Assembly (NCBI GenBank): GCA_025060695.1
Contig: JANXBH010000001.1
Location: 90,730-154,729, forward strand
Length of the DNA stretch: 64,000 bases
Direction of reading: 5' to 3'
Source of the DNA: a candidate division WOR-3 bacterium
GTDB lineage: Bacteria > Hydrothermota > Hydrothermia > LBFQ01 > DSFT01
The position numbers and the translations under genes were made by a program. The first letter of the stretch is position 1. Every line of letters begins with the position of its first letter. Positions 4,100 to 53,768 of this stretch are shown piece after piece. The notes beneath the pieces were generated by a model. The model was not told the origin of the DNA. It was given only the letters and a program-made list of their open reading frames with translations, and did no database searches.

Positions 4100-4134
4100 G
4101 GTCTTAAATTTTAAAGTTTGTACCTTAAAATTTA

Positions 4135-4614
4135 TTGAATTTGGAAAGAAAAAGGTTAGATATTAATATTTACTCACTCGCTGAGATAATAAAAAATAGT
4201 GAAGAACACATTTTAGATTTAGAAACTGGTAGATTATTCAAAATTGATGAAAATATCTTAGATGCTATTGAAAGTGACTATTACGATGACTTAAGTGTAA
4301 ATGAGTTGGAAGTAGTGGAAATTTTAAAAGAGGTTTATAATGGTTCTAAGAGGTTTGTTCAAGTTCCAAAAATTTCAGAGGGAGACATAATAAATATCAT
4401 TATGGAAATTAGAGAAAATTTGGATGATATGGATGAATTAAAAGAAAAACTTCTTGAAATTGCATCATCTGAAAAAGTGTATAGAAAAATTAGATATTTG
4501 ATAGATAAAAATGAGGAATTTGAAAAAATATGGAATTATTATCTTTGGTTGTATACAGTAAAAAAGGCAAAGGCTTGGCTTTTATCTCTTGGATTTGAAA
4601 TTAACCAACCATAA
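4135..4614 (+). CDS. hypothetical acidic protein
   Basis: 159 aa ORF with no recognisable motif. The TTG at 4135 lies only 3 nt after the upstream TAAAAT element; the TTG at 4141 fits the promoter spacing better. Confidence 0.35.
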   Translation: MNLERKRLDINIYSLAEIIKNSEEHILDLETGRLFKIDENILDAIESDYYDDLSVNELEVVEILKEVYNGSKRFVQVPKISEGDIINIIMEIRENLDDMDELKEKLLEIASSEKVYRKIRYLIDKNEEFEKIWNYYLWLYTVKKAKAWLLSLGFEINQP

Positions 4615-5274
4615 ATAAAGACCAGATAGCGTCATATGAGGTTCATATTTATAGTCCTTAAAGAACTTTAAAAATAAATTCGCATTTCCACCAGTTATAA
4701 ACTTATGCTTTACATTGAATTCTTTTTCCAATTTTAAAATTAGAGATTTATAGCTATTTAACAAACCAAGTAGTATAGCCTCTTCTGTTGAGTTAGCTAT
4801 TGGTTTTTCCTGAATATCAAAACATGTATTTTCTAAATTTGGTAAAAGCGAAGTACTTTCATGTAAGCATTTTAAATAGTTTTTATAACCAAGTAATATA
4901 AAACCACCTTTAAATTCGCTATCTACTATATCTATTACTGTTGCTGTCCCAAAGTCTACCACTATAGAAATTTCCCCTAACTTGTATGAAATGTAATGTG
5001 CCTTTGCTATTCTATCGCTACCAAGTGTTTTTGAATAGTTCAACTTGACTAAACTACTTTCATAATTAAGTTCATACAAACTCTTATTTTTTAGTACTTC
5101 ACTTAAGTTTATTTCTTTTAAAACACTACAATATGCAATTTCTTCTATTTCATGAAAAAATTCCTGAATTTTTGATATTTCTACTAAACTAAATGTATTA
5201 AATTTTATTAAATCACCACTACTTACTATACCGCACTTAATTAAACTATTTCCAATATCTACTAAACCGACTAT
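4582..5274 (-). CDS. coaX: type III pantothenate kinase
   Basis: CoaX motifs in frame: VGLVDIGNS (N-terminal phosphate-1 loop), LGSDRIAKAHY, DFGTATVIDIV, ITGGNA. The ORF track begins at an internal TTG (5079). My in-frame translation is open up to 5304 with no ATG/GTG/TTG. I propose an ATA start at 5272-5274, which is 8 nt after a TAAAAT element. Confidence 0.7.
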   Translation of the reverse strand: MVGLVDIGNSLIKCGIVSSGDLIKFNTFSLVEISKIQEFFHEIEEIAYCSVLKEINLSEVLKNKSLYELNYESSLVKLNYSKTLGSDRIAKAHYISYKLGEISIVVDFGTATVIDIVDSEFKGGFILLGYKNYLKCLHESTSLLPNLENTCFDIQEKPIANSTEEAILLGLLNSYKSLILKLEKEFNVKHKFITGGNANLFLKFFKDYKYEPHMTLSGLYLWLVNFKSKR

Positions 5275-5280
5275 TGACCT

Positions 5281-5316
5281 AAATTTTAAAGCAACATAAC
5301 TGCTTTAAAATTTTTA
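5281..5316. promoter_or_regulatory. two copies of the palindromic TTTAAAATTTTAAA-type element in a 46-bp divergent intergenic region (coaX / RNB exoribonuclease)
   Basis: AAATTTTAAAG at 5281-5291 faces coaX, with ATA 8 nt downstream on the minus strand. CTTTAAAATTTTTA at 5303-5316 faces the RNB gene, with ATG 5321 9 nt after TAAAAT. Confidence 0.45.
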
Positions 5317-5320
5317 CTTC

Positions 5321-6871
5321 ATGGAAGAGTTAAAGAAAGTGTGGAAAGATTTAGTAAATAAAAAAATAGAGCTTATAAATTATAATGAATTTGAAAAGAT
5401 GTATGGTGCAAGCATGCTTGAGATGGTAGCTAGTCCAAATCCTTATTTTTCTATAAGGGAAAATGTTATAAGGGTAAATAGTTGGGCAAAGAGATTTACA
5501 AATTTTGAAAGTGGGAAAAAAGATGAGGAGCTTGCACTAATTTTATCTGACTATATAAGAAATGGCTATAAAACAGAATATTTAGATATAATTGAAGAGA
5601 TAAAAAGTGAAGGTACAGATGACCAAAGGATATATAAAACACTTGGTAGAAAAGGTTATTTATACTACAAAGAATTGCCTTTTTTTTATAGGGAAGAACC
5701 ATGTAATCCTATAATAGTAGAGGATAACTATAAGAGAGTTGATTTAAGAAACTTATATACATTCTCTGTTGATGAGGAGGGAACGATAGAAGTAGATGAT
5801 GCAATTAGCATAAACGGAAATAAGGTATATATCCACGTAGCAGACGTTGCATCATCAATAAAATTATACAAAAACCTATCATTACTTGAAAAAGTAATGA
5901 GCTTGTACTTGCCTGAAGAAAATTTTTACTTATTTTCAAATAAGGTGATTGAGAGTTTTTCTCTATATAAAGGTGATAAAAAAGCATTAACTTTAGTTAT
6001 GGAATTTGATGAAAACTTAAATCTAAAAAGCTACAATTTTATAAGAACGATTATCAGCGTAAAAGATAGATTTGACTATAAAACCTTTGAAAAAGTTTTA
6101 TCTATAGAGCCATTTAAAAAACTTCTAACAATTTCAAGAAAATTTCAACTGATAAGATTAAATAATGGTGGCTATAACATAAATTTACCTATGAAAAAAT
6201 TCAAAATAGAGGACGATAGTATACACTACGAGCTTATAAATTTAAATTCAAAAAGTTATACTACAATTTCAGAACTTATGATACTTTATAACTACTTGGC
6301 TTCCAAACTACTAAGAAGACTGGAATTTTCTGCAGTATATAGAAATTATGAGGATAAAGGTCAAATCCAATTAGATGAGAATGATCCCTTATATTACTAT
6401 AAAATTATGAATTTATTCAAACCAACTGTTCTATCTTCTCAACCTAAAGCTCATACTATTATGGGTTTAGATGTATATGCACAATTTACTTCACCTTTAA
6501 GAAGAATTTACGATATCATAAATCAAGAGCAACTACATAGAGCATTAGATAACCAAGAACCAGTTTATCATGCAGAGAAAATAGAAGAGTTTATAAAAGT
6601 TGCAGTTAGAATTGAAAAGAGGAAGAAAAATATACAAAGAGATAGGCTAAACTTTTGGACTTATGTCTATTTGAAAAAATACCATAGTGAAAGAATTATA
6701 AGCGGAGTTGTTTCACAAGCAAATAATAAATGGTCGGAAATTTTCTTCCCAAAGTTTCTTATAACTGAAAAGGTATATTACAAAGGTCTTGAAGTTGGCA
6801 AAAAAATAAATTGTTTAATAAAAAATGTAGATCCATTCGGAAATAAAATGGAGATTTTCATAGTAAAATGA
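5321..6871 (+). CDS. RNB-domain 3'-5' exoribonuclease (RNase II/R family) with C-terminal S1 domain
   Basis: RNB catalytic region VDDAISINGNKVYIHVADVASSI and a C-terminal S1-like segment GVVSQANNKWSEIFFPKFLITEKVYYKGLEVGKK. 516 aa. Confidence 0.65.
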   Translation: MEELKKVWKDLVNKKIELINYNEFEKMYGASMLEMVASPNPYFSIRENVIRVNSWAKRFTNFESGKKDEELALILSDYIRNGYKTEYLDIIEEIKSEGTDDQRIYKTLGRKGYLYYKELPFFYREEPCNPIIVEDNYKRVDLRNLYTFSVDEEGTIEVDDAISINGNKVYIHVADVASSIKLYKNLSLLEKVMSLYLPEENFYLFSNKVIESFSLYKGDKKALTLVMEFDENLNLKSYNFIRTIISVKDRFDYKTFEKVLSIEPFKKLLTISRKFQLIRLNNGGYNINLPMKKFKIEDDSIHYELINLNSKSYTTISELMILYNYLASKLLRRLEFSAVYRNYEDKGQIQLDENDPLYYYKIMNLFKPTVLSSQPKAHTIMGLDVYAQFTSPLRRIYDIINQEQLHRALDNQEPVYHAEKIEEFIKVAVRIEKRKKNIQRDRLNFWTYVYLKKYHSERIISGVVSQANNKWSEIFFPKFLITEKVYYKGLEVGKKINCLIKNVDPFGNKMEIFIVK

Positions 6872-7644
6872 AAGCCCTTGTGCTTTCAGGTGGAGGTTCA
6901 AAAGGTCTTGCTCATATCGGTGTGATAAAAGCAATTGAGGAGAAGAAAATTGAATTAGATTTTATTGTAGGATGTTCAATGGGAGCTTTAGTAGGAAGTT
7001 TGTATGGACTTGGATATTCTTCACATGCTATGACTTCTATTGCAAGACTTATTATTTCAAAAAAGTTGCTAAATTTTAAGTTTTCATTGAGTGAGTTTTT
7101 TGATTCAAAGAAAATAGATAGTTTATTAGATGAAATATTTCAAGAAACCACATTTAGAGAGCTTAAAATTCCTGTTTATATAACTGCTGTGGACTTACTA
7201 AATTACAACTATATTGTTTTTAATGATGGATTGCTAAAGAATGCAATAAGAGCGTCTATTTCATTGCCTGTTATTTTTAAGCCTGTAATGATAAATGGCA
7301 GGGTCCTAATAGATGGTGGAATTATTGAAATACTTCCTCTAAGTGTTGCGAGGAAATTAGGAGCAAACTATATCATTGCTGTAAACGTTGTAGGTTCATT
7401 ATCAGAAGATATATACTTTGAAGATAGTAGCAATGTAAAAAGTATAGATTATGGACTTATTAGAACTGCTCTAAGTTCTATATATATTTTACAAAGGTCT
7501 CAAATTCAAAAGACTATAGAATCATTTAAGCCAGAGGTACTTATAAATGTAGATACAAGTGGTATTAGTCCTATAGACTTTAACCTTAATTTAGAAGATA
7601 TTATAAGTAGAGGCTATGAAAGTGCAAAGAATGCTTTAAAATGA
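6868..7644 (+). CDS. patatin-like phospholipase
   Basis: LVLSGGGSKGLAHIGV (oxyanion GGGxKG), GCSMGALVG (GxSxG nucleophile), and DGG in IDGGIIE (catalytic Asp). Confidence 0.75.
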   Translation: MKALVLSGGGSKGLAHIGVIKAIEEKKIELDFIVGCSMGALVGSLYGLGYSSHAMTSIARLIISKKLLNFKFSLSEFFDSKKIDSLLDEIFQETTFRELKIPVYITAVDLLNYNYIVFNDGLLKNAIRASISLPVIFKPVMINGRVLIDGGIIEILPLSVARKLGANYIIAVNVVGSLSEDIYFEDSSNVKSIDYGLIRTALSSIYILQRSQIQKTIESFKPEVLINVDTSGISPIDFNLNLEDIISRGYESAKNALK

Positions 7645-8006
7645 ATATAGGTATAGATATAGTTGAAGTTAAAAGAATTGAGAATTTATATAGAAAATTT
7701 GGTGAAAAGTTTTTACATCGCATCTTTACAGATGAAGAAATAAATTATTGTTTTTCAAGGAAAAATAGTTTCCATAGTTTTGCAGGTAGATTTGCTATAA
7801 AAGAGGCTGTTCTTAAGGCTCTTGGAATTGGTATGACATCTGGATTTTCATTTAAAGATATTGAAGTTGTAAATTTAGAAAAAGGAAAACCAGTGGTAAT
7901 ACTAAATGGTAAGCTAAAAGAAATGCTTGGAAATAGAAAAATAGAAATATCTATAAGTCATTCAGATAACTATGCAATAGGTGTATGTATAATTCACAAC
8001 CTTTAA
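7641..8006 (+). CDS. acpS: holo-[acyl-carrier-protein] synthase
   Basis: 121 aa with GIDIVEVKRI and FAGRFAIKEAVLKALG, the AcpS 4'-phosphopantetheinyl transferase signature. Start overlaps the patatin stop. Confidence 0.8.
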   Translation: MNIGIDIVEVKRIENLYRKFGEKFLHRIFTDEEINYCFSRKNSFHSFAGRFAIKEAVLKALGIGMTSGFSFKDIEVVNLEKGKPVVILNGKLKEMLGNRKIEISISHSDNYAIGVCIIHNL

Positions 8007-8015
8007 AATATAAGC

Positions 8016-10931: not shown

Positions 10932-10964
10932 AATTTTGTTCTTCTGGAAATTTATGTAGTTTTC

Positions 10965-12056: not shown

Positions 12057-12088
12057 AATTTTTTGTCTTATGTTTTGATAAATTTTAA

Positions 12089-12105
12089 AGGGGGAACGGC
12101 CCCCT
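12089..12105 (-). terminator. GC-rich hairpin (GGGGG-AACGG-CCCCC) followed on the minus strand by a T-rich tract
   Basis: It immediately abuts the stop codon (12104-12106) of the TonB-dependent receptor gene. It is the only GC-only stem in an AT-rich intergenic region. Confidence 0.5.
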
Positions 12106-14238: not shown

Positions 14239-15050
14239 GGTTTTATAATTTTAAAGTCCGCATCTATCAAAAATACTCCTTTTTTTACAATTTTTTCACC
14301 ATTCTTTATACCTTCAATTAAATAACCATCTTTTACATCAGTAATAATCTTTACTTCTTTTGCTTTAAATGAGCCATCTTCAAAAACATATACTATATCA
14401 CTATTTCCTGTTCTAATTACTGAACTTTTCGGAACAATCTTTCCCCTTATTTCCTTCACTATCTTACCTACTTCATAATTATTCTCAAAGAAAGTATTAT
14501 CATTTTTAAGAATAACGATAATTTCAAAGTAGTTTGCACTATTGGAAGAAGGTAAAATCTCTACTACTCTACCCTTAGTATTTCTAATTTCAACTATATC
14601 TCCTTTTTGAACATATAAAAAATCGCTTTTTCTAACGCTACCTATAAACTGAACAATAGAATTATTTACAATTTCCATAACTACAGAACCAGCCTCAAAT
14701 TTTTCACCTTCTGTTATATCAATTTTCAAAACTCTTCCACTAATAGGACTTCTAAAAATTATACTATCCGAAAATATATCTTCAGGACTTATTTGTAATA
14801 ACTTAATCCTCTCAAGAATAAAACTATCTTTAGTAATATCGAACTCCGATTTTATTCTTAAAATTTCAGGAGAATAAAAACTAAAAATCTTCTCTCCTCT
14901 ATTTATATATTCTCCTTCGTTTTGAATATAGAGATTTAAAACGTATCCAGAAAATCTTGGAACAATTTTTGTAATTGCATTTTTTGGAAATTTTACTACA
15001 CCTTCTATGATTATTTCCTTATAACCAACTGTATCTTTAACTAAAAAAAA
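14235..15050 (-). CDS. RND membrane fusion protein (CusB/HlyD family), C-terminal two-thirds; frame lacks a start codon
   Basis: By my hand translation the frame is open from 15050 down to 14235, about 272 codons. It encodes MFP-like beta-barrel and membrane-proximal segments (RSPISGRVLKIDITEGEKFEAGSVVMEI; IVYVFEDGSFKAKEVKI...GEKIVKKGVFLIDAD). There is no ATG/GTG/TTG before the internal TTG at 14729. It joins the upstream ORF by a 1-nt shift in a T8 run. Confidence 0.6.
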   Translation of the reverse strand, partial: FFLVKDTVGYKEIIIEGVVKFPKNAITKIVPRFSGYVLNLYIQNEGEYINRGEKIFSFYSPEILRIKSEFDITKDSFILERIKLLQISPEDIFSDSIIFRSPISGRVLKIDITEGEKFEAGSVVMEIVNNSIVQFIGSVRKSDFLYVQKGDIVEIRNTKGRVVEILPSSNSANYFEIIVILKNDNTFFENNYEVGKIVKEIRGKIVPKSSVIRTGNSDIVYVFEDGSFKAKEVKIITDVKDGYLIEGIKNGEKIVKKGVFLIDADFKIIKP

Positions 15051-15445
15051 TCAATAAGTTTATTATCTATTTGAGAATGTGTATGCTTAACTTCCCCCTT
15101 AAATGGTATATTTATTAGCTTTTCAATTTTGTTTCCATCTAACTCTAAAATAATAAACCACTCACCACTCATAGAAACAAAAACTTTTCCTTCGTAATTT
15201 TTATTTAGTTCAAATACTTCTGTCATGGCAGGCATGCCTGGCATTTCCGGCATATACAAATACGCCTTAAATGACCTTGGTTTTGGTTCTATTATAAACT
15301 TTACCTTATTTTCTCTTTCCTTTAGCATTCCATCAGTAGTTAAGATTTTTACTTTATATCCTTTATCTACTATTTCAAGAACTTCTTTATAATTTTGACC
15401 ACAGGATATAAGAAAAAGTAATATAAAAATTTTCCTCATATTCAA
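15041..15445 (-). CDS. lipoprotein N-terminal segment of the same CusB-like adaptor; Met-rich putative Cu(I) site
   Basis: Lipobox LISCGQ and a Met-rich motif YMPEMPGMPAMTEV. The ORF stops (TAG 15041-15043) right after GAU UUU UUU, inside the T8 homopolymer 15043-15050. Confidence 0.55.
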   Translation of the reverse strand: MNMRKIFILLFLISCGQNYKEVLEIVDKGYKVKILTTDGMLKERENKVKFIIEPKPRSFKAYLYMPEMPGMPAMTEVFELNKNYEGKVFVSMSGEWFIILELDGNKIEKLINIPFKGEVKHTHSQIDNKLIDFF

Positions 15446-15449
15446 AATT

Positions 15450-16436
15450 TTAAAACATAAACTTTAACTTATAGTAGCTTAGGATTGCATTATATTTCAA
15501 CCTGTTTATTTCTCTTTCCATATTCAATATTTCGTTTAAATTATAGTAGTATTCTACTAAAGATATATCACCTAAAAGCTTTGAAATATTTAAAGTCGTC
15601 ATAAGTTCATCTCTTCGGCTTTTATATAACTCATATTGACTAACTGATAGTTTATATTCAGATATAGTTCTTTCAATTTCAAGCTTAATATATTCTATTG
15701 AAGAACTATAGTAATTTCTATATGCATCTTTCAATTTTACTCTTGTCTTTATTTCACCTAATGGAAATGTATTAATAGTAAATCCTATCATAAATCCATA
15801 TGTATTATCTTTTCTTATTAAAACCATAGGTTTTACATTAGGAACAAGCTTTATATAGCTTAATTTTAAAGAATTTTCAATTGTCTTAAGTTCATAGCTT
15901 AACATATTATAATCTACGGTCTCTTCCAACTTATAGTCTTTTAATTTTGGAATACTTTCAATATCTTCAATGCTATCTATCTTGGCATAGTAGTTTAGTG
16001 TAATCATTAAATTATTATATTTTGCCTTAAGAAAATCCAAGTTTATATTCAATTCTCTTATTTTTGCATTTATCTCTAATATTTTTGAAAATTCCGTAGT
16101 TTTATCATATTTATAAGCACTTAGTATTAGCTTCCTTATTTTTTCATAGTTTTCTAAAATTTTATATAGAATTTCCAATTCTTTTTTTAATTCAATAGCT
16201 TGTAAATAAGTCTCTATTGCTTCAAGTATGAATTCATTCCTTTCTTTTAAATTTTTATATTTCATCGCAACTATTTCATCTTTAATTATAAAAGACTCAT
16301 ATATCATATGGGGCGATATTTCAGTTCCTATACTTATATTTCCACTTTCAAACATTGCATTGTATTCTACCATAAGCTGTGGATTTAAAGCACTGTAAAT
16401 TTGATATTCGTAATACTTTACTTTTTTATGCTCCAT
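15450..16436 (-). CDS. outer-membrane efflux factor-like protein (TolC/OMF family?), short
   Basis: 328 aa, heavily coiled-coil (alternating heptads), ending with aromatic YKLKFMF. Its position next to MFP and RND genes suggests an OMF. No signal peptide at the annotated ATG, so the N-terminus is uncertain. Confidence 0.4.
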   Translation of the reverse strand: MEHKKVKYYEYQIYSALNPQLMVEYNAMFESGNISIGTEISPHMIYESFIIKDEIVAMKYKNLKERNEFILEAIETYLQAIELKKELEILYKILENYEKIRKLILSAYKYDKTTEFSKILEINAKIRELNINLDFLKAKYNNLMITLNYYAKIDSIEDIESIPKLKDYKLEETVDYNMLSYELKTIENSLKLSYIKLVPNVKPMVLIRKDNTYGFMIGFTINTFPLGEIKTRVKLKDAYRNYYSSSIEYIKLEIERTISEYKLSVSQYELYKSRRDELMTTLNISKLLGDISLVEYYYNLNEILNMEREINRLKYNAILSYYKLKFMF

Positions 16437-24060: not shown

Positions 24061-24075
24061 TTTAAAATTTTAAAG
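24061..24075 (-). promoter_or_regulatory. TTTAAAATTTTAAAG element immediately upstream of the aminopropyltransferase paralog start
   Basis: Minus strand reads CTTTAAAATTTTAAACT-ATG, with TAAAAT ending 8 nt before the ATG at 24058. Confidence 0.45.
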
Positions 24076-28105: not shown

Positions 28106-28129
28106 AACTTGAAAATTTTAAAGGTTTTA

Positions 28130-29827: not shown

Positions 29828-29859
29828 GAAATTTTAAAGCAACCTTAAAATTTTGAAAT
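29828..29859. promoter_or_regulatory. back-to-back TAAAAT elements serving the divergent small ORF (-) and ccdA (+)
   Basis: GAAATTTTAAAG at 29828-29839 gives TAAAAT 7 nt before GTG 29823 on the minus strand. CCTTAAAATTTTGAAAT-ATG gives TAAAAT 8 nt before ccdA ATG 29860. Confidence 0.45.
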
Positions 29860-32982: not shown

Positions 32983-33007
32983 GATTTTGAGAATTTTAAA
33001 GTTTTAG

Positions 33008-33991
33008 CTAACATATAGGCTCGTACAGGTTTTTCTTTACACATTCCTTGAACTTGTTTACCCTTTCCAATCTTAAAACTTTCCTACTTTCAGCTGACTT
33101 AAATCTTTCAATCTCATAGTCCCTCCAAGGATTAAATTGCTTTAATGGCTCAACTGAAACAAAAGTCATATAACTACTTGCAACTTTATATCTTGTTGAA
33201 GTAAGTGGCTCTTCTTTTATTATTTTTACACCAACTTCAATAGAGCGATGACCTACATAGTTTATACCAAGGTAGAAATGCAAGATATCTCCAGTTCTTA
33301 CAGGACAAATAAAGTCAAACTCATCGATTGATGCAGTAAACGACGGGCTTTTCGCATACTGAACACTTAAAATTCCACCAAGCTCATCTAACTTCTCAAA
33401 CAAATAACCTGCAAACATTGTATTAGAATATATAGTTTCATATGGAAAAACAAGTTTTGCAGAATACAAACTATAGGTAGGGACTTTTGATGTATCTAAG
33501 TCATTTATGTCTAATTTTCTATTCTTTATCCTTTCTAATCTATACGCCCTTTTTTTAAGACCCCATTCGTATATTTGTTTTTCTTTTTCATCCTTTGGGA
33601 CAACTTTTATGTCTAGCTTTCTTGGTTTTCCGCTTTCATCCACTGCAACGTATCCAAAATGAGCAAGTGTGACTACTTTTAATTCATTATCCTTTGTTCT
33701 TTTAAATACAGTAACACCTACTTCTAAAGAACTATTAAAAGTTGCCTGCACTCTTGATCTAAAAATAAGTGTATCTCCACTATGTACAGGTTCTATAAAA
33801 TCTACGCTATCCATAGAGCCAATTACAACTGGTCCTTGTGCTACTTTATTTGCAGAAAGAAGACTTGCCTGACTTATAAGATATAACATTTTACCGCCAA
33901 ACATTGTATTTGCAGGATTTATAAAATAAGGAAACACATATTCGTATATTTCTATAACTGTATCAGAAATATTTATTTCCTTCATCTTCAA
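33008..33991 (-). CDS. acyl-CoA thioesterase, tandem hot-dog domains
   Basis: Two repeats of the hot-dog thioesterase pattern (PANTMFGGKMLYLISQAS...GDTLIF and NTMFAGYLFEKLDELG...GDILHF). Confidence 0.65.
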   Translation of the reverse strand: MKMKEINISDTVIEIYEYVFPYFINPANTMFGGKMLYLISQASLLSANKVAQGPVVIGSMDSVDFIEPVHSGDTLIFRSRVQATFNSSLEVGVTVFKRTKDNELKVVTLAHFGYVAVDESGKPRKLDIKVVPKDEKEKQIYEWGLKKRAYRLERIKNRKLDINDLDTSKVPTYSLYSAKLVFPYETIYSNTMFAGYLFEKLDELGGILSVQYAKSPSFTASIDEFDFICPVRTGDILHFYLGINYVGHRSIEVGVKIIKEEPLTSTRYKVASSYMTFVSVEPLKQFNPWRDYEIERFKSAESRKVLRLERVNKFKECVKKNLYEPIC

Positions 33992-34565
33992 ATTTTAAAC
34001 TTAGAAAATCTCTAAGCTTTTTTAATGCAATAGCTCTATGACTAATTTTATTTTTAACTTCCATTTCTATTTCCCCAAATGTTTTTCCAATTGGTTTATA
34101 GTAAAATATTGGGTCATAACCAAAACCTTTATCTCCTCTTATTTGAAAACCAATTTCACCCTCCACCTTTCCCTCAAATACATGGCTTTCACCGTTGTTA
34201 TTTATAAACACAATGACACAATGAAAATACGCACTTCTATTTTCTTTATCTTTCATAAGTTCTAAGATTTTTTCTAAATAGTCTGGATTTCCTTTTTGAA
34301 ACTCAGCTGAATGAACACCGGGAAAACCACCTAACGCCTCTATAAAAATACCAGAATCATCAGATATTACTGGCATTCCTGTTATTTCATGAACTTTCTT
34401 TGCCTTAATTAGTGCATTTTCTAATAGCGTCTTTCCAGTTTCCTCTATTTGAATATCTAAACTTATATCTTCCAAAGACAGAAATTCTATATCCTTAAAG
34501 TCCTTGAAAAAATTTTTAATTTCTTCTATTTTATGTTTATTTCTTGAAGAAATTAGAATTTTCAG
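33963..34565 (-). CDS. rdgB: non-canonical purine NTP pyrophosphatase (RdgB/Ham1 family)
   Basis: GFGYDPIFY C-terminal motif. The in-frame N-terminus (L)KILISSRNKHKIEEIK aligns to the family start MKIVLATGNxGK. The ORF track starts at an internal TTG (34475). The frame is open up to the tRNA-Tyr 3' end with no ATG/GTG/TTG. Start assigned to CTG 34563-34565; ATT 34557-34559 is the alternative. Confidence 0.65.
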   Translation of the reverse strand: MKILISSRNKHKIEEIKNFFKDFKDIEFLSLEDISLDIQIEETGKTLLENALIKAKKVHEITGMPVISDDSGIFIEALGGFPGVHSAEFQKGNPDYLEKILELMKDKENRSAYFHCVIVFINNNGESHVFEGKVEGEIGFQIRGDKGFGYDPIFYYKPIGKTFGEIEMEVKNKISHRAIALKKLRDFLSLKFEDEGNKYF

Positions 34566-34568
34566 TAG

Positions 34569-34653
34569 TGGGCAGGGTAGGATTTGAACCTACGTAGGGC
34601 GTTAGCCCAGCAGGTTTACAGCCTGCCCCCGTTGGCCGCTTGGGTACCTGCCC
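34569..34653 (-). tRNA. tRNA-Tyr (anticodon GTA), long variable arm, CCA not encoded
   Basis: Acceptor GGGCAGG/CCTGCCC. Anticodon stem-loop GCAGG-CTGTAAA-CCTGC. T-arm GTAGGTTCAAATCCTAC. Confidence 0.85.
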
Positions 34654-34734: not shown

Positions 34735-34750
34735 CTTTATAATTTTAAAG
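34735..34750 (+). promoter_or_regulatory. CTTTATAATTTTAAAG element; TATAAT 8 nt upstream of the ATG of the 1381-aa gene
   Basis: GGCTTTATAATTTTAAAGT-ATG at 34752. No Shine-Dalgarno is possible in the 1-nt gap after the element. Confidence 0.45.
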
Positions 34751-38897: not shown

Positions 38898-38926
38898 ATA
38901 AACATATCCTTTATAATTTCAACACT

Positions 38927-40241: not shown

Positions 40242-40254
40242 CAAAATTTTAAAG
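40242..40254 (-). promoter_or_regulatory. CTTTAAAATTTTG element abutting the pyrF GTG start
   Basis: Minus strand: ATAACTTTAAAATTTTGT-GTG-TTT-TTC. Confidence 0.4.
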
Positions 40255-40289
40255 TTATTAGCTTGTCCTTTAAAATTGTAATACTTTTT

Positions 40290-43428: not shown

Positions 43429-43429
43429 A

Positions 43430-44347: not shown

Positions 44348-44357
44348 CTATTAAATT

Positions 44358-44930
44358 TTAAAGGCTGTCATAAAGATTTTCTAATGCCTCTTTTCTAATT
44401 ACATTTCTTTCGAATTCTCCAAACTTTACCAAGACTTGATTGTTTAAAATCTTAAATACTAAGGCAATTGAAACAAATGGCTTTAGATATTCTAAAAACT
44501 TATATAAACTCGGATTAAAATTTAAAATACCTTCACTTTCGCTATGCAAAACTCCCTCAGGGAATATAAAAAAATAGTACTTTTGAGGATATGTATTTAG
44601 CAGTTCTATTGTTTTTCTCATTGAAATTATTTTTTCATGAGTAGTTTTAAATGGTAATACTTTTGCGAATTTTTCAAAATAAGGATAATTTCTATATTCC
44701 TCCATCCAAATAAGAATCTTCCTATCTTTCAAAATGGTTTTTCTCAGCCTATTTAATATATGAACATCGTAGTAGTAAAAATGGTTAGAATAGATAATAA
44801 TTTTTTGTTCCTTATATAAGCTAAACTCTGGTGCATTTAATACCTTAAATGACTTAAATCTACTTAGCTGACTCTCAAGAGTAAAATCTACTAAAAACTT
44901 TGGATAAAACTTTTTAAAATATTCTAACAT
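44358..44930 (-). CDS. lysophospholipid acyltransferase-family protein (PlsC-like)
   Basis: HxxxxD motif NHFYYYD and an FPEG motif (FIFPEGVLHSE). Confidence 0.5.
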   Translation of the reverse strand: MLEYFKKFYPKFLVDFTLESQLSRFKSFKVLNAPEFSLYKEQKIIIYSNHFYYYDVHILNRLRKTILKDRKILIWMEEYRNYPYFEKFAKVLPFKTTHEKIISMRKTIELLNTYPQKYYFFIFPEGVLHSESEGILNFNPSLYKFLEYLKPFVSIALVFKILNNQVLVKFGEFERNVIRKEALENLYDSL

Positions 44931-46915: not shown

Positions 46916-46957
46916 AACTGAAAGTTTAAAGTAGATGCTTTAAAATTTTGGAAAATT

Positions 46958-47031
46958 GGGCGGGTAGCTCAGCTGGTGAGAGCGCTGCCCTTACAAGGCA
47001 GAGGTCAGAGGTTCAAGTCCTCTCCCGCCCA
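46958..47031 (+). tRNA. tRNA-Val (anticodon TAC)
   Basis: GGGCGGGTAGCTCAGCTGGTGAGAGC...CTGCC-CTTACAA-GGCAG...AGAGGTTCAAGTCCTCT-CCCGCCC-A. Confidence 0.85.
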
Positions 47032-47033
47032 TA

Positions 47034-47699
47034 ATAAAATATATTATCATTGTCCCAACTTATAATGAATTTCCTAAGATAATCCAAACAATTGAAAATC
47101 TAAAAAACTATAATTACGATGTATTATTCATAGATGATGGATCAAGCGATGGAACATTTGAAGTTATTAAAAGTTCTGGTTTTAAATATATAAAAAATCA
47201 AAAAAATTTTGGAAAGGGTTATAGTATAAAAAGGGGTTTAGAATATGCTATCTTAAATAACTATCAAGTAGTAATCACATTAGATGCGGATGGACAACAT
47301 CCAATAGAATACATTCCGAAATTCATAGAGAAGATTCAAAACTACGATATTGTTATTGGTTCAAGAAGAAAACTTATGCATCCAAAAAATATGCCATTTG
47401 ATAGGTATATTTCCAATAGACTAAACTCTTCAATTGTTTCAATTTTTTGCAATAAAATTATACCAGATGCACTCTGTGGCTATAGGGCAATTAGAACCAA
47501 GATTTTAAAGGATATTAACTTTAATTGTAATAGATTTGAATTTGAAATAGAGTTCATAGTAAAAGCTTGTAAATATGGATTTAGTATTGGATTCTTAGAT
47601 ATACCTTTAATTTATAAGGATGAAAAAAGCCATATAAGAAAAGTCTTAGATACATTAAGAGTAATGAAATTATACTTCAGCTTTATCTTGTTTTCTTAG
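47034..47699 (+). CDS. family 2 glycosyltransferase (dolichyl/polyprenyl-phosphate glycosyltransferase-like)
   Basis: In-frame N-terminus IKYIIIVPTYNEF...FIDDGSSDGT...ITLDADGQHP (GT2 DxD/DAD motifs). The ORF track only reports from the internal ATG 47376. The frame is open back into tRNA-Val with no ATG/GTG/TTG. First codon after the tRNA is ATA 47034-47036. Confidence 0.65.
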   Translation: MKYIIIVPTYNEFPKIIQTIENLKNYNYDVLFIDDGSSDGTFEVIKSSGFKYIKNQKNFGKGYSIKRGLEYAILNNYQVVITLDADGQHPIEYIPKFIEKIQNYDIVIGSRRKLMHPKNMPFDRYISNRLNSSIVSIFCNKIIPDALCGYRAIRTKILKDINFNCNRFEFEIEFIVKACKYGFSIGFLDIPLIYKDEKSHIRKVLDTLRVMKLYFSFILFS

Positions 47700-47724
47700 T
47701 TATAGCTTTAAACTTTAGGGCTTT

Positions 47725-48681: not shown

Positions 48682-49795
48682 TAGCTTTGATTTCTTTTAT
48701 TTCTTCGCCATTTTTAACATTTAAAACTTCTAATAGTCTATCAAGGTCATTGTTAAGAAATTCATAAATAAAGCGAATAATATTTTTAAAGTTTCTGTCA
48801 GTTAATTGTTTTAACTCATTATAGCTAATACTTCTTAAATGAAAGAGCATAATTTTGGAAAAGAAATCAATAATATTTAAGTTATAATCCTTTTCAAAGA
48901 AAGCTTTTATGTGAATAGGTAAATTTTTAAACTTTAAAAGTTTTTTCTCAATTGATAGTGCATATCTAATAGCATTTTCTATCTCACTAAAATTTCCAAA
49001 CCAAGGATAAGTTAAGTACGCTCTATAAAAGTCCTCTTCAATTTCTACCATTTCATTCGTAATATTTCTTAAAAAGTGCTCTAATATAAGTAGTTTCTCT
49101 TTATGGTTTCTTTCAGAGATAGATGGTATATAGATTGATGGTACTGTAGAAAGATTTATAGGTGGAGAGATATTGTCCGTAATGAATACAATTCTTCCTT
49201 TCTTTTTATATATACTATTTACAGCAAAATTAAATTCAAGAATACTTTCAAATAGGTCTATATTCATTATAATTATTGACTTAGTCTTTTCTTTTTCTTT
49301 TCTAAAACCCACTTCCTTTTCCTCAATTTCAAAATAGTCTACTGCTCTATCTCCAATTATAGAGCGTATAATTGTATATTTACCAACACCCCTTTGACCA
49401 TATATCAAAATCCAAGGTTCATACTCACTATTTAGTAGTATTTCAAGTTTTCTATATATGTCATCTGTTTTTCCATAATAGCAAACAAAGTTTACATTTG
49501 CAGGCTTTAAATCGTTTATAGCATAGTATTTATTATAAAATTCTATCATTCTTTGTCTAATAGTTTTTTTTGAATAGACTTCAAGAAAGTTATTTAAATC
49601 ATCTTCGTTTTCAAAAGAATAGTCTATAGTTTGTAAGTTAGAAGAGCCTATAGTTATAGTTGTAAAATTCAGAGATATTTCATACAGTTCCTTGTAATTA
49701 TTATCAGCAATTACAACGTCTGGGAATTCATCTATGTTTACTTGATTGTAGCTTTCCTTTATTTTAATATTTTTAGATAAATTAAGAATTTTCAA
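48668..49795 (-). CDS. AAA+ ATPase related to sigma-54 activator domains (degenerate)
   Basis: Walker A ILIYGQRGVGKYT and the C-terminal PWFGNFSEIENAIRYA resembling the WPGNVRELEN signature. No GAFTGA, no receiver domain and no obvious HTH. Start taken as TTG 49793-49795, 4 nt after tRNA-Gly. The ORF track began at a TTG inside the tRNA. Confidence 0.4.
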   Translation of the reverse strand: MKILNLSKNIKIKESYNQVNIDEFPDVVIADNNYKELYEISLNFTTITIGSSNLQTIDYSFENEDDLNNFLEVYSKKTIRQRMIEFYNKYYAINDLKPANVNFVCYYGKTDDIYRKLEILLNSEYEPWILIYGQRGVGKYTIIRSIIGDRAVDYFEIEEKEVGFRKEKEKTKSIIIMNIDLFESILEFNFAVNSIYKKKGRIVFITDNISPPINLSTVPSIYIPSISERNHKEKLLILEHFLRNITNEMVEIEEDFYRAYLTYPWFGNFSEIENAIRYALSIEKKLLKFKNLPIHIKAFFEKDYNLNIIDFFSKIMLFHLRSISYNELKQLTDRNFKNIIRFIYEFLNNDLDRLLEVLNVKNGEEIKEIKAIIHE

Positions 49796-49798
49796 AAG

Positions 49799-49870
49799 AG
49801 CGAGCGACGGGACTTGAACCCGCAACCCCCAGCTTGGAAGGCTGGCGCTCTACCGTTGAGCTACGCTCGC
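49799..49870 (-). tRNA. tRNA-Gly (anticodon TCC)
   Basis: GCGAGCGTAGCTCAACGGTAGAGC...CCAGC-CTTCCAA-GCTGG...GCGGGTTCAAGTCCCGT-CGCTCGC-T. Confidence 0.85.
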
Positions 49871-49883
49871 TAAGTATAAAATT

Positions 49884-50744
49884 TTAAAGCATAGATAAAA
49901 TTCTTTGAGAATCATAAACTTGTAAATCAATGTCCAAGTAGTATATATTTTCTTTATTTTCAATTTTTACAAAGTCCTTTAAAGTGGTTATTATAGGAAG
50001 GTTGAATTTCCTTAATGGTTTTAAATCACTTTCTTTATAGTAGTGATGGTCAGGAAATTCTTTAAAATATATAAGATTAAATGTTTTACTTACTATATTC
50101 TTAAAACTCCTACTATCCGCAATGCCACAGAAAGCCACAACATCTTTAAAGTTATATGGATTTATTATTTTATATCTTATGCTGACAGCAGGCTTTCCAT
50201 AAAATTCAGAAATCTCAAAAAACTCAGAAAATTTAAAATTTATTACTATAAAATCTACCCTCTTTATTTCAGTTATAGGTTCTCTATATTTCCCAAATGG
50301 AAATACTTTCCAACCCCTAAGTTCATTGTAGTTTATAATCAATATTTTTTTATCAAAGTCTATCCTCCAATACTGTAATGCATCATCAAATAGTAAAATA
50401 TGAGGTTTAAATAGTTCAATGCCAATTTTTGATGCAAGAAATCTGTCTTTATATACAAGAACTTTCAAACCTGTTTTAAGATGTATTAAATATGGCTCAT
50501 CACCTACTAAGCTGACATCTATATCTTTGTCCCTAATTAACTGAACATGCTTGTTTTTCCTCTTATAACCTCTACTTAGAACAATTACATTATACCTCTG
50601 TTTTAGCTTATTTGCTAAGAATATAGTAAATGGAGTTTTCCCTGTTCCACCAAATGAAAAATTTCCAATAGCTATTGTTTTTGCATCTAACTTTTCTGGC
50701 TTTATTAAAGATCTATGTATCTTAGAGATATAGTAGTAAATCAC
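49884..50744 (-). CDS. lpxK: tetraacyldisaccharide 4'-kinase
   Basis: P-loop IAIGNFSFGGTGKTPF. 286 aa. Confidence 0.8.
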   Translation of the reverse strand: MIYYYISKIHRSLIKPEKLDAKTIAIGNFSFGGTGKTPFTIFLANKLKQRYNVIVLSRGYKRKNKHVQLIRDKDIDVSLVGDEPYLIHLKTGLKVLVYKDRFLASKIGIELFKPHILLFDDALQYWRIDFDKKILIINYNELRGWKVFPFGKYREPITEIKRVDFIVINFKFSEFFEISEFYGKPAVSIRYKIINPYNFKDVVAFCGIADSRSFKNIVSKTFNLIYFKEFPDHHYYKESDLKPLRKFNLPIITTLKDFVKIENKENIYYLDIDLQVYDSQRILSML

Positions 50745-51328: not shown

Positions 51329-52172
51329 AGAAAACTTTATCCGCTCTATATGAGCTTCTTACGAGTGGTCCTGAGAATACTTCTTTAAATCCAATTTCTA
51401 ATGCTCTATCTCTATACCATTTGAATTTATACGGCGGAACATATTCTACTACGCTTAAGTGTCTTTTTGAGGGTTGTAAATATTGTCCAATTGTTAATAT
51501 ATCCACACCCACATTTCTTAAGTCTTTCATAGTTTGAATAACCTCCTCCTCAGTTTCTCCAAGTCCAACCATAATTGAACTTTTAGTTAATATATTGCTA
51601 CTTTGATTCTTTGCATGTTCCAAAACAAAAAGTGATTGTTTATAGCTTGCCCTTGGGTCTCTTACTATAGACGTTAGTCTTTCTACCGTTTCTATGTTAT
51701 GTGCAAATACATCAAGTGGAGATTTTGCTACTAAACTAATAGAGTTTCTATTTGCTTGAAAATCTCCAACAAGTGCCTCAATTTTAATATCTGGGAAATT
51801 CTTTCTTATTTCTAATATAGTTCTATATACGTGAAATGCACCACCATCTACTAAATCATCCCTATCAACCATAGTAATTACTACATATCTTAGATTTAGA
51901 TGTCTAATAGTTTCTACTACGTGAATAGGTTCTAATGGATCAATCCAACCTTTTGGATTTCCAGTTTTTACAGCACAAAATTTACAATTTCTGGTACAAG
52001 TATCTCCAAGTATCATTATAGTAGCTGTCCCGTGCGACCAACATTCGTTTATATTTGGACACTTCGCTTCTTCACAAACTGTATACAGTTTTTTATTTCT
52101 TAATATATCCTTGACTTCATAAAATTTATCATTATATTCAAGCTTAATTTTTAACCACTCAGGTTTGTTCAT
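51315..52172 (-). CDS. lipA: lipoyl synthase
   Basis: CEEAKCPNINEC (auxiliary cluster) and LGDTCTRNCKFC (radical-SAM CxxxCxxC). Confidence 0.9.
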   Translation of the reverse strand: MNKPEWLKIKLEYNDKFYEVKDILRNKKLYTVCEEAKCPNINECWSHGTATIMILGDTCTRNCKFCAVKTGNPKGWIDPLEPIHVVETIRHLNLRYVVITMVDRDDLVDGGAFHVYRTILEIRKNFPDIKIEALVGDFQANRNSISLVAKSPLDVFAHNIETVERLTSIVRDPRASYKQSLFVLEHAKNQSSNILTKSSIMVGLGETEEEVIQTMKDLRNVGVDILTIGQYLQPSKRHLSVVEYVPPYKFKWYRDRALEIGFKEVFSGPLVRSSYRADKVFYGEI

Positions 52173-52174
52173 TA

Positions 52175-52219
52175 TTTTAAAATTTTAAAACACATTTATT
52201 CACTTTAAAATTTAAAAAG
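52175..52219. promoter_or_regulatory. tandem TTTTAAAATTTTAAAA / CTTTAAAATTTAAAAA elements between lipA (-) and the + strand operon start
   Basis: lipA ATG 52172 is preceded on the minus strand by TAAAAT-containing sequence. The + gene GTG 52219 lies 7 nt after TAAAAT. Confidence 0.45.
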
Positions 52220-53037
52220 TGTCAAAAATTGTATACGATAAAATAAAATATGATGGGATTTCAAGTAGTTTTATTATTACACATGCGTTTGAAAAATTTC
52301 TAAAAGTCAACGTTTTTAATGGTTATATAATATTTAATAACAAGGATTTTGTATATGTACTAAACGGTGAACTCTATGGAATTAAGAAACTTGAAGATGC
52401 AAAGCAACCATGGATTGCTAATGTATACGAATTAAATTCAAAAACACTAATACTATTTATGAACTTTAAAAACTCAAAAAATTTAGAAAGTTTAAAGATA
52501 TCTTCAAGACTTTTTGATACACTAATATCTGAAACTCTTGAAATTACTAAATTTTTTTGGATTGAGATAAAAGATGGTAATAATCTTTACGATTTGGCAT
52601 ACTTTTTAGGAGAAGTTGTAGGGATTTATAGGAATTCTGTAAGGATCTTAGAATTACCCGAAAACGAATTATCAAACAGAATTGAGGTAAATGTTTTTGA
52701 TTTTAATGAATATCTTGAAACAAAAAAGGCAGAGATACTTAAGAACTTCTATATAAAAAGGTTTGAAAACATTTGGCAAAAATACAAAGAGACATTAATT
52801 ATAGAATATAGTAAGGAGAAGGCTGAAGTGGAATTTAGAAAATTACAAAAAGAATTATCAAAAAAATACTCAATTTTAGACCCATTGCTTGGTATTGTGG
52901 ACATAGATAAGAACTTTGACTTAAAAGTCCAATCACTAAATGAAGATGAGGTCTTCATAGTTAGAGAACTACTTCTGAATTTTTATTCAAAAACTATACC
53001 GAAGAAACTTGAAAAGATAAAAGAAGAGTTAGCATGA
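52219..53037 (+). CDS. hypothetical protein; first gene of a long + strand operon
   Basis: 272 aa with no motif recognised. GTG start 7 nt after CTTTAAAATTTAAAAA. Confidence 0.3.
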   Translation: MSKIVYDKIKYDGISSSFIITHAFEKFLKVNVFNGYIIFNNKDFVYVLNGELYGIKKLEDAKQPWIANVYELNSKTLILFMNFKNSKNLESLKISSRLFDTLISETLEITKFFWIEIKDGNNLYDLAYFLGEVVGIYRNSVRILELPENELSNRIEVNVFDFNEYLETKKAEILKNFYIKRFENIWQKYKETLIIEYSKEKAEVEFRKLQKELSKKYSILDPLLGIVDIDKNFDLKVQSLNEDEVFIVRELLLNFYSKTIPKKLEKIKEELA

Positions 53038-53753
53038 GAAAATTCTCAGATATTGTATTTTCAAGATTATCAAATGTTTTTAGAAGTTTATTTATAGCAA
53101 TTATAGTAATAAATGGTGTTTTGTTATTTTCTCTTTCTAAAATTTTTGAAAAATCTTCAGATATTGGCTTTTTAAGAGGACAATTAACCTCATTTTCTCT
53201 AATGATTTATGATATTATTGCAGGGATACACTCAAAGGAGTTTGCAAAATTATCACTTTCTGAAAGTATAAATAAAACTGAGCCAATATTAAAGAAATAT
53301 AGAGATGATGTTTGGTCAAAGGATTTTGGAAGATTCATTGAAAAATTTAAACTTTTTATAGAAAATCCAACTCAAAAAGCAGCAAATGAAATATTTCTAT
53401 TAGCTGAAAATTTAAATAGAAAACTGATTGAAATTGATGAAGAAAGCAGAAAAATTAGTTCAATGGGGGTTATTGTAGTAATAGCTTTAAATATCTTTTT
53501 TCTCGGTGCTTTAGGATTCTTTATGATAAACTACACTTATAAACTGTCTTCAGAGTTTTCCGCACCACTTATTGAAATAAGGAACATTATTTCAAAAATA
53601 GCCATAGGTAGTATAGATAAAGCGGTAAAATATGAGGGTAATATAGAGGAAGTTTATGATATATTCCAGAGTATTGAAACCTTAAGGGAAGATTTGTATC
53701 AAAGTAAGCTTAGGATACAAGAAATATTAAAGAAATACAGAGAAGGGAAATAG
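53034..53753 (+). CDS. membrane protein: TM, periplasmic helical domain, TM, HAMP-like domain, no output domain
   Basis: Two hydrophobic helices (LFIAIIVINGVLLFSL; GVIVVIALNIFFLGALGFFMI) and an approximately 50-aa amphipathic segment after TM2 (APLIEIRNIISKIAIGSIDKAVKYEG...) typical of HAMP. Confidence 0.4.
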   Translation: MRKFSDIVFSRLSNVFRSLFIAIIVINGVLLFSLSKIFEKSSDIGFLRGQLTSFSLMIYDIIAGIHSKEFAKLSLSESINKTEPILKKYRDDVWSKDFGRFIEKFKLFIENPTQKAANEIFLLAENLNRKLIEIDEESRKISSMGVIVVIALNIFFLGALGFFMINYTYKLSSEFSAPLIEIRNIISKIAIGSIDKAVKYEGNIEEVYDIFQSIETLREDLYQSKLRIQEILKKYREGK

Positions 53754-53768
53754 CTTTAAAATTATAGT
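53754..53768 (+). promoter_or_regulatory. CTTTAAAATTATAGT element 6 nt upstream of the recN ATG (possible internal promoter)
   Basis: TAGCTTTAAAATTATAGT-ATG at 53769. Confidence 0.35.

Follow-up and report, generated by a model that had tools for sequence, protein, structure and literature searches.

A probable −10 element placed 5–10 nt before start codons points to leaderless mRNAs in a low-GC candidate division WOR-3 genome

Bacteroidota promoters carry a −7 element, TAnnTTTG, and a −33 element, TTTG, and translation in these bacteria is independent of Shine-Dalgarno (SD) sequences; the extended −10 element of Escherichia coli and Firmicutes reads TGnTATAAT. Mycobacterial and actinobacterial sigma-A promoters of leaderless genes consist of a −10 TANNNT with a weak or absent −35 (PMC4633059), and GeneMarkS-2 group C, common in Actinobacteria and Deinococcus-Thermus, is the class in which a Pribnow box stands about 6–10 nt from the first gene's start and SD sites serve elsewhere (PMC6028130). 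Genomes of the Fibrobacterota-Chlorobiota-Bacteroidota (FCB) group are 90% group B in the same scheme (PMC6028130). Mitochondrial transcripts offer a further comparison, as tRNA punctuation there yields leaderless mRNAs initiated at AUA or AUU (references in PMC4633059; PMC8459731; PMC11775629). Here we analyze a 64-kb stretch of contig JANXBH010000001.1 from a candidate division WOR-3 bacterium, hereafter the window, in which roughly one gene in three has an oriented 11-mer, CTTTAAAATTT, 5–10 nt ahead of its start codon. We conclude that CTTTAAAATTT is probably the −10 element of a housekeeping promoter that places many transcript starts at start codons, giving leaderless mRNAs.

The window has a guanine-plus-cytosine (GC) content of 29% and a dense bacterial housekeeping gene content that includes rimP-nusA-infB, pyrF, nadA, lipA, recN, speE and an AcrB-type pump, together with six tRNA genes arranged as four units (Thr-Tyr, Ser-Ser, Val and Gly). 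A scan of the window with Rfam at gathering thresholds returned the six tRNAs alone and no riboswitch or leader RNA at motif sites. A preliminary description of this DNA had proposed a comparison of the motif with shuffled sequence, and the enrichment is clear: the 9-mer core CTTTAAAAT occurs 22 times in the window against 7.0±2.5 (maximum 13) in 200 dinucleotide shuffles, the 11-mer CTTTAAAATTT 12 times against 1.1±1.1, and the palindromic 14-mer with at most 2 mismatches 35 times against 15.0±4.3. Twelve of the 22 exact CTTTAAAAT copies stand 5–10 nt before open reading frames (ORFs) of at least 60 aa and four before tRNAs, two are intergenic "orphans" and four are intragenic. The hexamers TAAAAT (281 vs 277 in shuffles) and TATAAT (170 vs 187) are unenriched on their own, and the signal therefore resides in the longer word. 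When 7-mers are counted without bias in the 25-nt regions that precede 66 coding sequences (CDSs), tiles of the motif rank at the top, with TTAAAAT in 18 upstream regions vs 1.1 expected (p=4e-17), and the next independent signal is AAGGAGG. The unenriched hexamers are what would be seen if the pattern had arisen by chance in a genome of 29% GC, rich in AT words near gene ends, an explanation to which we give almost no credence: the 9- and 11-mers exceed dinucleotide shuffles 3- to 11-fold, control 9-mers of matched composition precede starts in 0/35 cases vs 14/28 for the motif (Fisher p=1e-6), AT-rich loci of Firmicutes, Patescibacteria and Bacteroidota hold 0–1 motif-start pairs each, and the pattern recurs in WOR-3 genomes of 53% GC.

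Alignment of 28 motif sites reveals the features of a −10 element. With the hexamer TAAAAT numbered −12 to −7, the consensus reads C−15 T−14 T−13 before it and T−6 T−5 after it; C−15 is present in 25/28 sites and T−14 in 26/28, and positions outside the site selection are also conserved (T−6 in 27/28, T−5 in 23/28, and T at −16 in 0/28). Hexamer variants are TAAAAT, TATAAT and TAAACT, with A−11 and T−7 invariant in 28/28 sites. The element thus follows the TAnnnT rule of sigma-70-type −10 regions with both key bases fixed, and like them also precedes non-coding RNA genes, in a set of sites ascertained by the motif itself. Upstream of −16 no column of the 28 sites exceeds 0.45 bit, and the alignments of these sites and of 11 tRNA promoters show no convincing −35 or other upstream motif. 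A TTGACA-like −35 at 17±1 bp is at best a weak trend (at most 2 mismatches in 32% of sites vs 14.5% of random positions), the TG at −15/−14 of an extended −10 does not characterize the 28 sites, and the Bacteroidota −7 element TAnnTTTG fits 1/28. The WOR-3 element resembles the extended −10 in having conserved bases just upstream of the hexamer and a dispensable −35 but differs in carrying C−15 T−14 T−13 instead of T−15 G−14, with an occasional TG at −17/−16. Sigma-A leaderless promoters (PMC4633059) are likewise −10-only, adjoin the coding sequence and accept a GUG start, whereas the WOR-3 element adds C−15 T−14 T−13 and T−6 T−5 and is found with AUA, AUU and CUG at predicted 5′-terminal starts.

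In the direction of the gene that follows, the consensus of the element always reads C-T-T-TAAAAT-T-T. All 15 coordinates listed in the preliminary description hold the element, and further copies absent from that list lie at 8001, 34000, 38909, 40268, 46931, 46938, 47706 and 55447. The earlier view of the element as a perfect palindrome does not survive, since the consensus then given, AAATTTTAAAG, is the motif in reverse complement, from copies that belong to minus-strand genes, and the palindrome is apparent because divergent genes each own an oppositely oriented copy. The idea that one copy serves divergent genes fails for the same reason: the sites listed at 4104, 5281, 29828 and 52175 are two inverted copies each, and six divergent pairs carry separate back-to-back copies (4116−/4123+, 5291−/5303+, 29839−/29843+, 40254−/40268+, 46931−/46938+ and 52190−/52203+) with 3–14 bp between the two 9-mers. 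A secondary suggestion of the preliminary description, that the element binds a dimeric regulator (as a palindromic operator, which would make the regulator a global one) or is one bidirectional signal common to divergent genes, could draw on two perfect 14-bp palindromes, the only ones among about 28 sites (24061 and 52176), and on the opposed copies at 34735+/34750−, the sole place where such copies overlap. Conservation is not two-fold symmetric, however, and is confined to the gene-oriented half CTTTAAAATTT, with positions beyond −4 below 0.35 bit; the palindrome at 24061 has a one-sided target, divergent pairs hold two separate copies, and the genes it would control, housekeeping genes and tRNAs, are unrelated, which together make an operator highly improbable. 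At 34735–34750 the opposed −10 hexamers of a C25 peptidase gene (+) and tRNA-Thr (−) overlap by 2 bp, the sole substance behind the notion of a shared palindrome, and RNA polymerase binding at the two should therefore be mutually exclusive.

Spacing between hexamer and start codon is tight. The preliminary description placed the hexamer 6–10 nt before ATG, GTG or TTG, and the distance stands with gaps of 5–10 nt counted; the start codons stand in part, as the copies at 5281–5291 and 12080–12090 lead to ATA. At 19/66 CDSs of the window the gap is 5 nt once, 6 nt three times, 7 nt five times, 8 nt three times, 9 nt five times and 10 nt twice, and pooling the window with five relatives (33 copies) gives 1, 5, 9, 4, 9 and 5 cases for gaps of 5, 6, 7, 8, 9 and 10 nt. 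The absence of SD sequences from these gaps also holds up: SD-like 4-mers occur at 1/22 motif genes vs 17/45 others (Fisher p=0.003), and a clear GGAGG precedes leadered or internal genes at 12104–13921, 56689, 57160, 59017, 60065 and 62255. The motif is present at 10/21 first genes; at same-strand junctions 10/12 copies sit in gaps of 9–29 nt, and overlapping gene pairs have none. Start codons of motif genes are backed by N-terminal alignments to Pfam and NCBIfam, with upstream extension blocked by stops. Domain models begin at or near the predicted start, with residue 2 of PyrF aligned to hidden Markov model (HMM) position 3, residue 4 of NadA to 1, residue 5 of the thiolase to 2, residue 2 of RecN to 2, residue 5 of SpeE to 1 and residue 11 of RimP to 2, and for many motif genes no other possible start lies within 40 codons.

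The motif also precedes genes that are not translated. Most sites of the preliminary description are 5′ ends of protein genes as it held, with the exceptions of 49876–49890, which precedes tRNA-Gly, and one arm of 34735–34750, which serves tRNA-Thr. All four tRNA units of the window carry the motif 10–13 nt from the mature 5′ end. In a held-out test on the two flanks of the window in the same contig, about 9.7 kb each, both new tRNA units (Glu and Leu) have an exact CTTTAAAAT 10–11 nt upstream, bringing the count for this genome to 6/6, and new CDS starts lie 6–11 nt after motif copies at genes for a thioredoxin-fold protein, a TetR-family protein, adenylate kinase, an aminoacyl-tRNA synthetase and V-ATPase subunit I. 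In relatives, the motif stands before five tRNA units at a gap of 12–15 nt, in three as the exact 9-mer and in two as a one-mismatch variant. Because tRNAs are never translated yet carry the motif, it acts on transcription, and this distribution shows it to be a transcription signal, the putative −10 region of a housekeeping promoter, rather than a ribosome-binding site.

These data bear directly on the possibility of an AU-rich, non-SD ribosome-binding or translation-enhancer element on leadered mRNAs, of the GeneMarkS-2 group B type found in Bacteroidota and the FCB group. WOR-3 is usually placed near the FCB group, with its 90% of group B genomes, the motif is AU-rich and lies at ribosome-binding distance, and 12 copies fall at same-strand junctions shorter than 40 nt. 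Such an element would nevertheless have to occur in identical orientation and at a fixed distance before all six tRNA units here and five in relatives, GGAGG clearly serves genes elsewhere but is never combined with the motif, the motif is missing from internal genes that overlap or are tightly coupled, and its variation obeys the TAnnnT rule; we consider a translational element very unlikely. The WOR-3 motif thereby differs from the FCB group B motif in its presence before tRNAs and its absence from overlapping internal genes. Likeness to Bacteroidota extends to a possibly related superphylum, AT-rich signals near gene starts and type IX secretion system (T9SS)-type domains in the clade; unlike Bacteroidota, TAnnTTTG fits one site in 28, SD sequences are used, and the element behaves as a classical −10 hexamer.

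We propose that CTTTAAAATTT would be the −10 region of the main promoter, read by the housekeeping sigma factor without an informative −35, and that RNA polymerase would start about 6–9 nt downstream of the hexamer. At about a third of protein genes the start codon occupies that place (gap 5–10 nt), and the leader would be absent or at most 3–4 nt long; such leader-free mRNAs would be translated without an SD interaction, by leaderless initiation. At tRNA operons the element lies 10–13 nt before the mature 5′ end and would leave a short leader for RNase P, and operon-internal and a few leadered genes would rely on GGAGG or on starts coupled by overlap. We infer the transcription start position, leaderless translation and the sigma factor, the last from the housekeeping and tRNA targets. 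The earlier suggestion of a −10 box at the transcript start, with leaderless mRNAs, is supported in so far as the tRNA units, the −10-like variation, the mutual exclusivity with SD sites, the fixed start codons and the relatives all point that way.

Several observations weigh against this proposal. Gaps of 9–10 nt fall in the upper part of the range of −10 to +1 distances, and some transcripts probably carry leaders of 1–4 nt; in Caulobacter, leaders of 1–4 nt cut leaderless translation about two-fold per nt (PMC8459731). Several motif genes start with GUG, UUG or AUA, and near-cognate codons are poor starts on leaderless mRNAs in Caulobacter, with only mitochondria using them commonly (PMC8459731). 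The 28 aligned sites were chosen by the motif itself, which inflates the information content of the core columns and makes the conservation partly circular. Finally, exact CTTTAAAAT copies at 7634, 15871 (−), 47510 (−) and 50060 lie inside coding regions with no obvious target; these may be promoters of internal or antisense transcripts, or may have arisen by chance, which is expected to give 7 copies. The long gaps invite a variant in which the same promoter yields short leaders of about 3–8 nt and translation proceeds through unstructured AU-rich 5′ ends and the 30S subunit, not through 70S ribosomes on a 5′-terminal start codon. In its favor, 9–10-nt gaps make up 14/33 of the pooled canonical-start copies (window and five relatives), the tRNA gaps of 10–15 nt show that the polymerase is not obliged to initiate a full 10 nt downstream, and UUG is unfavorable as initiating nucleotides. 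Gaps of 5–7 nt in 15/33 copies leave no room for a leader, however, no SD fits any gap, and the start codon tracks the hexamer in orthologues despite N-terminal change, as at rimP. We therefore regard short leaders as unlikely to be the rule and retain the leaderless reading.

Orthologous genes in relatives keep both motif and gap, as seen in L001, L002, L049, L050, L053 and L056 (60–88% amino acid identity). The Logan-assembled relative L056 shows synteny over the window's first 15 kb and has a type III pantothenate kinase (CoaX) with 88% identity; it keeps motif and gap at six genes: the metC-like gene, the 157-aa gene, the RNB gene, the 577-aa gene, CoaX and the PCu(A)C gene. Both L001 and L002 have CTTTAAAAT and 9 nt before rimP though the N-terminal residues differ, the DHH gene of L050 begins with CTTTAAAAT, 10 nt and ATG, and L049, L050 and L053 (26–30% GC) supply further motif-start examples. 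Metagenome-assembled genomes (MAGs) of WOR-3 at 53% GC have TAAAAT, TATAAT or TAAGAT 6–9 nt before starts, often with flanking T's. The habit of placing a −10 at the start codon thus looks phylum-wide, and the rigid 11-mer looks confined to the low-GC clade. A scan of metagenome contigs with the DHH protein of the window found no relatives.

Compared with group C genomes, the window has a Pribnow-type box 6–10 nt before first-gene starts and SD sites at internal and leadered genes, and the pattern concerns between roughly a quarter and a half of transcription units. It departs from known group C members in phylum, in its very low GC content, in a consensus, CTTTAAAATTT, that is longer and more rigid than TANNNT, and in the many copies within 9–29-nt same-strand gaps, three of them with a TAA that is also the upstream stop. 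We consider it well supported by the sequence evidence that this is a known leaderless architecture in a new phylum, with an unusually long and rigid −10 consensus and no −35; our literature search found no prior description of leaderless transcription in WOR-3.

Individual copies illustrate the arrangement. At the left of the window, CTTTAAAATTT at 4106..4116 (−) lies 8 nt from ATG 4099 of a Cys/Met pyridoxal phosphate (PLP) enzyme gene (2873–4099; Pfam residue 27 = HMM 14), with the same gap in L056, and back-to-back with it CCTTAAAATTT at 4123..4133 (+) stands 9 nt before TTG 4141 of a 157-aa protein, a start with which the gene call on the source contig agrees and whose L056 counterpart reads CCTTAAAAT, 9 nt and TTG. 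The copy at 5281..5291 (−) is 8 nt from ATA 5274–5272 of CoaX, and its divergent partner at 5303..5313 (+) is 9 nt from ATG 5321 of an RNB-domain exoribonuclease, a copy kept in L056. At 8001..8011 (+) the motif overlaps the end of the upstream gene and stands 6 nt before ATG 8016 (577 aa), an arrangement identical in L056. The copy at 12080..12090 (−), right after a GC hairpin, has a gap of 10 nt to ATA 12071–12069 of a PCu(A)C copper-chaperone lipoprotein, and that at 14246..14256 (−) a gap of 9 nt to TTG 14238 of an 86-aa ORF. The variant TTTTAAAATTT occurs at 15445..15455 (−), 7 nt from ATG 15439 of a YtkA-like gene, with its TAA serving as the upstream stop 15452–15450, and again at 52180..52190 (−), 9 nt from ATG 52172 of lipoyl synthase.

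Further along the minus strand, copies at 24065..24075 (8 nt, ATG 24058) and 28113..28123 (9 nt, ATG 28105) precede the spermidine synthase gene and the rimP-nusA-infB operon, and 29829..29839 (−) leads by 7 nt to GTG 29823 of a 79-aa ORF followed by biotin carboxylase; opposite it, CCTTAAAATTT at 29843..29853 (+) is 8 nt from ATG 29860 of a DsbD-type membrane protein (residue 6 = HMM 5). A 761-aa YfhO-like membrane protein begins at ATG 32982, 10 nt after 32991..33001 (−), and a thioesterase at ATG 33985, 6 nt after the variant GTTTAAAATTT at 33990..34000 (−). CTTTATAATTT at 34735..34745 (+) is 8 nt from ATG 34752 of the 1381-aa C25 peptidase, and the opposed copy at 34740..34750 (−) is 11 nt from the mature 5′ end of tRNA-Thr (34730), which tRNA-Tyr follows; CTTTATAATTT recurs at 38909..38919 (+), 9 nt before ATG 38927. 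The pyrF gene starts at GTG 40240, 5 nt after 40244..40254 (−), and back-to-back with this copy 40268..40278 (+) lies 12–13 nt before tRNA-Ser(TGA), followed by tRNA-Ser(GCT). At 44353..44363 (−) the motif is 7 nt from ATG 44347 of nadA and its TAA is the upstream stop 44360–44358. The variant CTTTAAACTTT serves the thiolase gene at 46921..46931 (−; 7 nt, GTG 46915) and a DHH phosphoesterase gene at 47706..47716 (+; 10 nt, ATG 47725), and between these 46938..46948 (+) stands 11 nt before tRNA-Val (46958–47031), as also in L050 and L053. Other copies lie at 49879..49889 (−), 10 nt from tRNA-Gly (49870) with its TAA as the upstream stop 49886–49884; at 52203..52213 (+), 7 nt from GTG 52219 (272 aa); and at 53754..53764 (+), straight after the upstream stop codon and 6 nt from ATG 53769 of recN. 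The use of TAA within CTT-TAA-AAT as an upstream stop at three sites is an economy of a very compact genome. At the edge of the 12080 copy, within 12072–12103 (−), the GC hairpin GGGGGCCGTTCCCCC ends a 605-aa gene and the motif of the next gene directly adjoins it, so that the T-tract of a likely terminator overlaps the −10 region of the next promoter.

CTTTATAATTT at 55447..55457 (+) precedes a FIST-domain gene, 14 nt before ATG 55470 or 8 nt before an in-frame ATA at 55464. In 55447–55472 (+), the sequence past CTTTATAAT runs tttggcac ATA ATT ATG, all in the frame of the FIST gene, and the start could be the ATA at 8 nt, giving a leaderless mRNA, or the ATG at 14 nt, giving a short leader.

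Two promoter-proximal genes, CoaX and PCu(A)C, appear from comparison with orthologues to use ATA as the start codon. CoaX has no ATG, GTG or TTG for 65 codons, which encode the conserved N-terminus IVGLVDIGNS; L056 reads TTG-ATA-GTC where the window reads TCA-ATA-GTC, so that ATA GTC GG is common to both and the TTG lies one codon upstream of the ATA. The CoaX product on record for this genome (P0043, 224 aa) lacks the first six residues and apparently begins at a codon that reads ATT in the DNA. The lipoprotein signal of PCu(A)C, (M)RQKILILLFIVGC, starts at the ATA, and in L056 the orthologous codon is ATG, with a gap of 6 nt from the hexamer. Both genes appear to have drifted to AUA starts. 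The "orphan" copies 5291 (−) and 12090 (−) had been considered as promoters of non-coding RNAs or as a terminator T-tract, readings set aside once the ATA starts, checked against orthologues, accounted for them.

Genes that abut tRNAs form a separate case. In this genome a same-strand gene behind a tRNA unit starts 1–3 nt past the discriminator base in 5/5 units, and in relatives 1–8 nt past it in 5/5 units; none of these ten junctions has a promoter or SD sequence between the tRNA and the start codon, and 9/10 start codons are non-ATG (four TTG, two ATA, two ATT and one CTG). In the window, tRNA-Val is followed at 47031–47036 (+) by a family 2 glycosyltransferase (GT2) gene starting at ATA 47034..47036, 2 nt past the discriminator, with the first canonical start 114 codons downstream; tRNA-Tyr at 34563–34569 (−) by an RdgB/HAM1 pyrophosphatase gene starting at CTG 34563..34565, 3 nt past it, of which residues 2–188 align to HMM positions 1–183 of TIGR00042; and tRNA-Gly at 49793–49799 (−) by a gene for a 375-aa protein starting at TTG 49793..49795, also 3 nt past it. 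The flanks of this genome add an Ank lipoprotein gene behind tRNA-Glu and an 84-aa membrane protein gene behind tRNA-Leu, both with TTG, and relatives add tRNA-Gly followed by TTG at +8 (L050) and tRNA-Gln by ATG at +5; beyond the window, junctions lie at L063 5677–5681 (+) and 5447–5453 (−), L049 10059–10065 and 17948–17956, L050 9842–9847 and 12562–12572, and L053 9778–9784. The tRNA-Val/GT2 junction is kept in L049, L050 and L053, with ATT, ATA and ATT at 1–3 nt and proteins 55–62% identical to that of the window. Distant GT2 homologues have Met at the start column, and none of the five close homologues receives the right start from gene callers, which truncate them by up to 96 residues or extend them into the tRNA.

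CCA is encoded in 0/6 window tRNA genes, which is compatible with RNase Z-type 3′ processing. For tRNAs without an encoded CCA, an endonucleolytic 3′ cut just past the discriminator base is expected, and such a cut would release an mRNA with a 1–3-nt leader. The junctions thus raise the possibility, to which we give a little under an even chance, of a second class of leaderless mRNAs cut from tRNA 3′ ends and read from 5′-terminal near-cognate codons (UUG, CUG, AUA and AUU). As in mitochondrial punctuation, the CDS begins 1–3 nt past the tRNA 3′ end with no promoter or SD sequence between and a mostly non-AUG start; unlike mitochondria, this is a free-living bacterium with ordinary promoters, the arrangement concerns just genes behind tRNA operons, the processing is putative, and AUA presumably still serves as an internal Ile codon. 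A literature search for bacterial tRNA punctuation returned mitochondrial papers and citations only and no bacterial precedent. If confirmed, the tRNA-abutting non-AUG genes would to our knowledge be the first bacterial analogue of mitochondrial mRNA 5′-end formation.

The earlier implication that the genome is a Bacteroidete is ruled out: it belongs to candidate division WOR-3 and uses GGAGG at many internal genes. Initiation factor 2 (IF-2) of the window shares 77–78% identity with that of two MAGs labeled "candidate division WOR-3"; with that of other WOR-3 MAGs the identity is about 45%. An exact protein match also assigns the window to contig JAOAEM010000001.1 (300,011 bp) of GCA_026416795.1. 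The cultured WOR-3 strain sy37, at 60.6% GC against 29% here, is rejected as the source. A T9SS-type C-terminal domain occurs in the clade (Por_Secre_tail in L049), with just a weak sub-threshold match in the window. The close relative L050 encodes a reverse gyrase (5344–8712, with zf_Rg, helicase, Toprim and topoisomerase domains), which fits a thermophilic or hyperthermophilic low-GC WOR-3 clade. At 56689–63762 (+) a long same-strand cluster relies on GGAGG sites and overlaps, without the motif, and encodes a Roadblock/LC7 protein, a small Ras/Arf-like GTPase, a histidine kinase, a PatA-type response regulator, a PP2C phosphatase, a Ser/Thr kinase, CcmH and diaminopimelate (DAP) epimerase (domain names from the L061 gene table). 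The YtkA-like ORF ends GAT TTT TTT TAG at 15035–15057 (−; L056 counterpart at about 225–247); past it the −1 frame runs for 107 codons, resembles a membrane fusion protein and has no canonical start codon, and L056 has the same T8 run and the same two frames without change, making the two ORFs a candidate for joining by programmed −1 frameshift or transcriptional slippage.

Together, these data would add a deep, mostly uncultured and apparently thermophilic phylum to the few bacteria that rely heavily on leaderless translation. SD sequences at some WOR-3 genes, set against the 90% of group B genomes in the FCB group, are relevant to the question of an ancestral origin of leaderless initiation. 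Genes in this lineage are given wrong starts by standard callers, and a leaderless-aware model that includes the motif would correct a large share of starts in WOR-3 MAGs; the rigid 11-nt promoter also offers a handle for predicting transcription units and designing expression tools. The tRNA-abutting non-AUG genes are the part most deserving of experiment, and mRNAs cut from tRNAs, if true, would imply a ribosome and initiation factors unusually tolerant of non-AUG 5′-terminal codons in a free-living thermophile.

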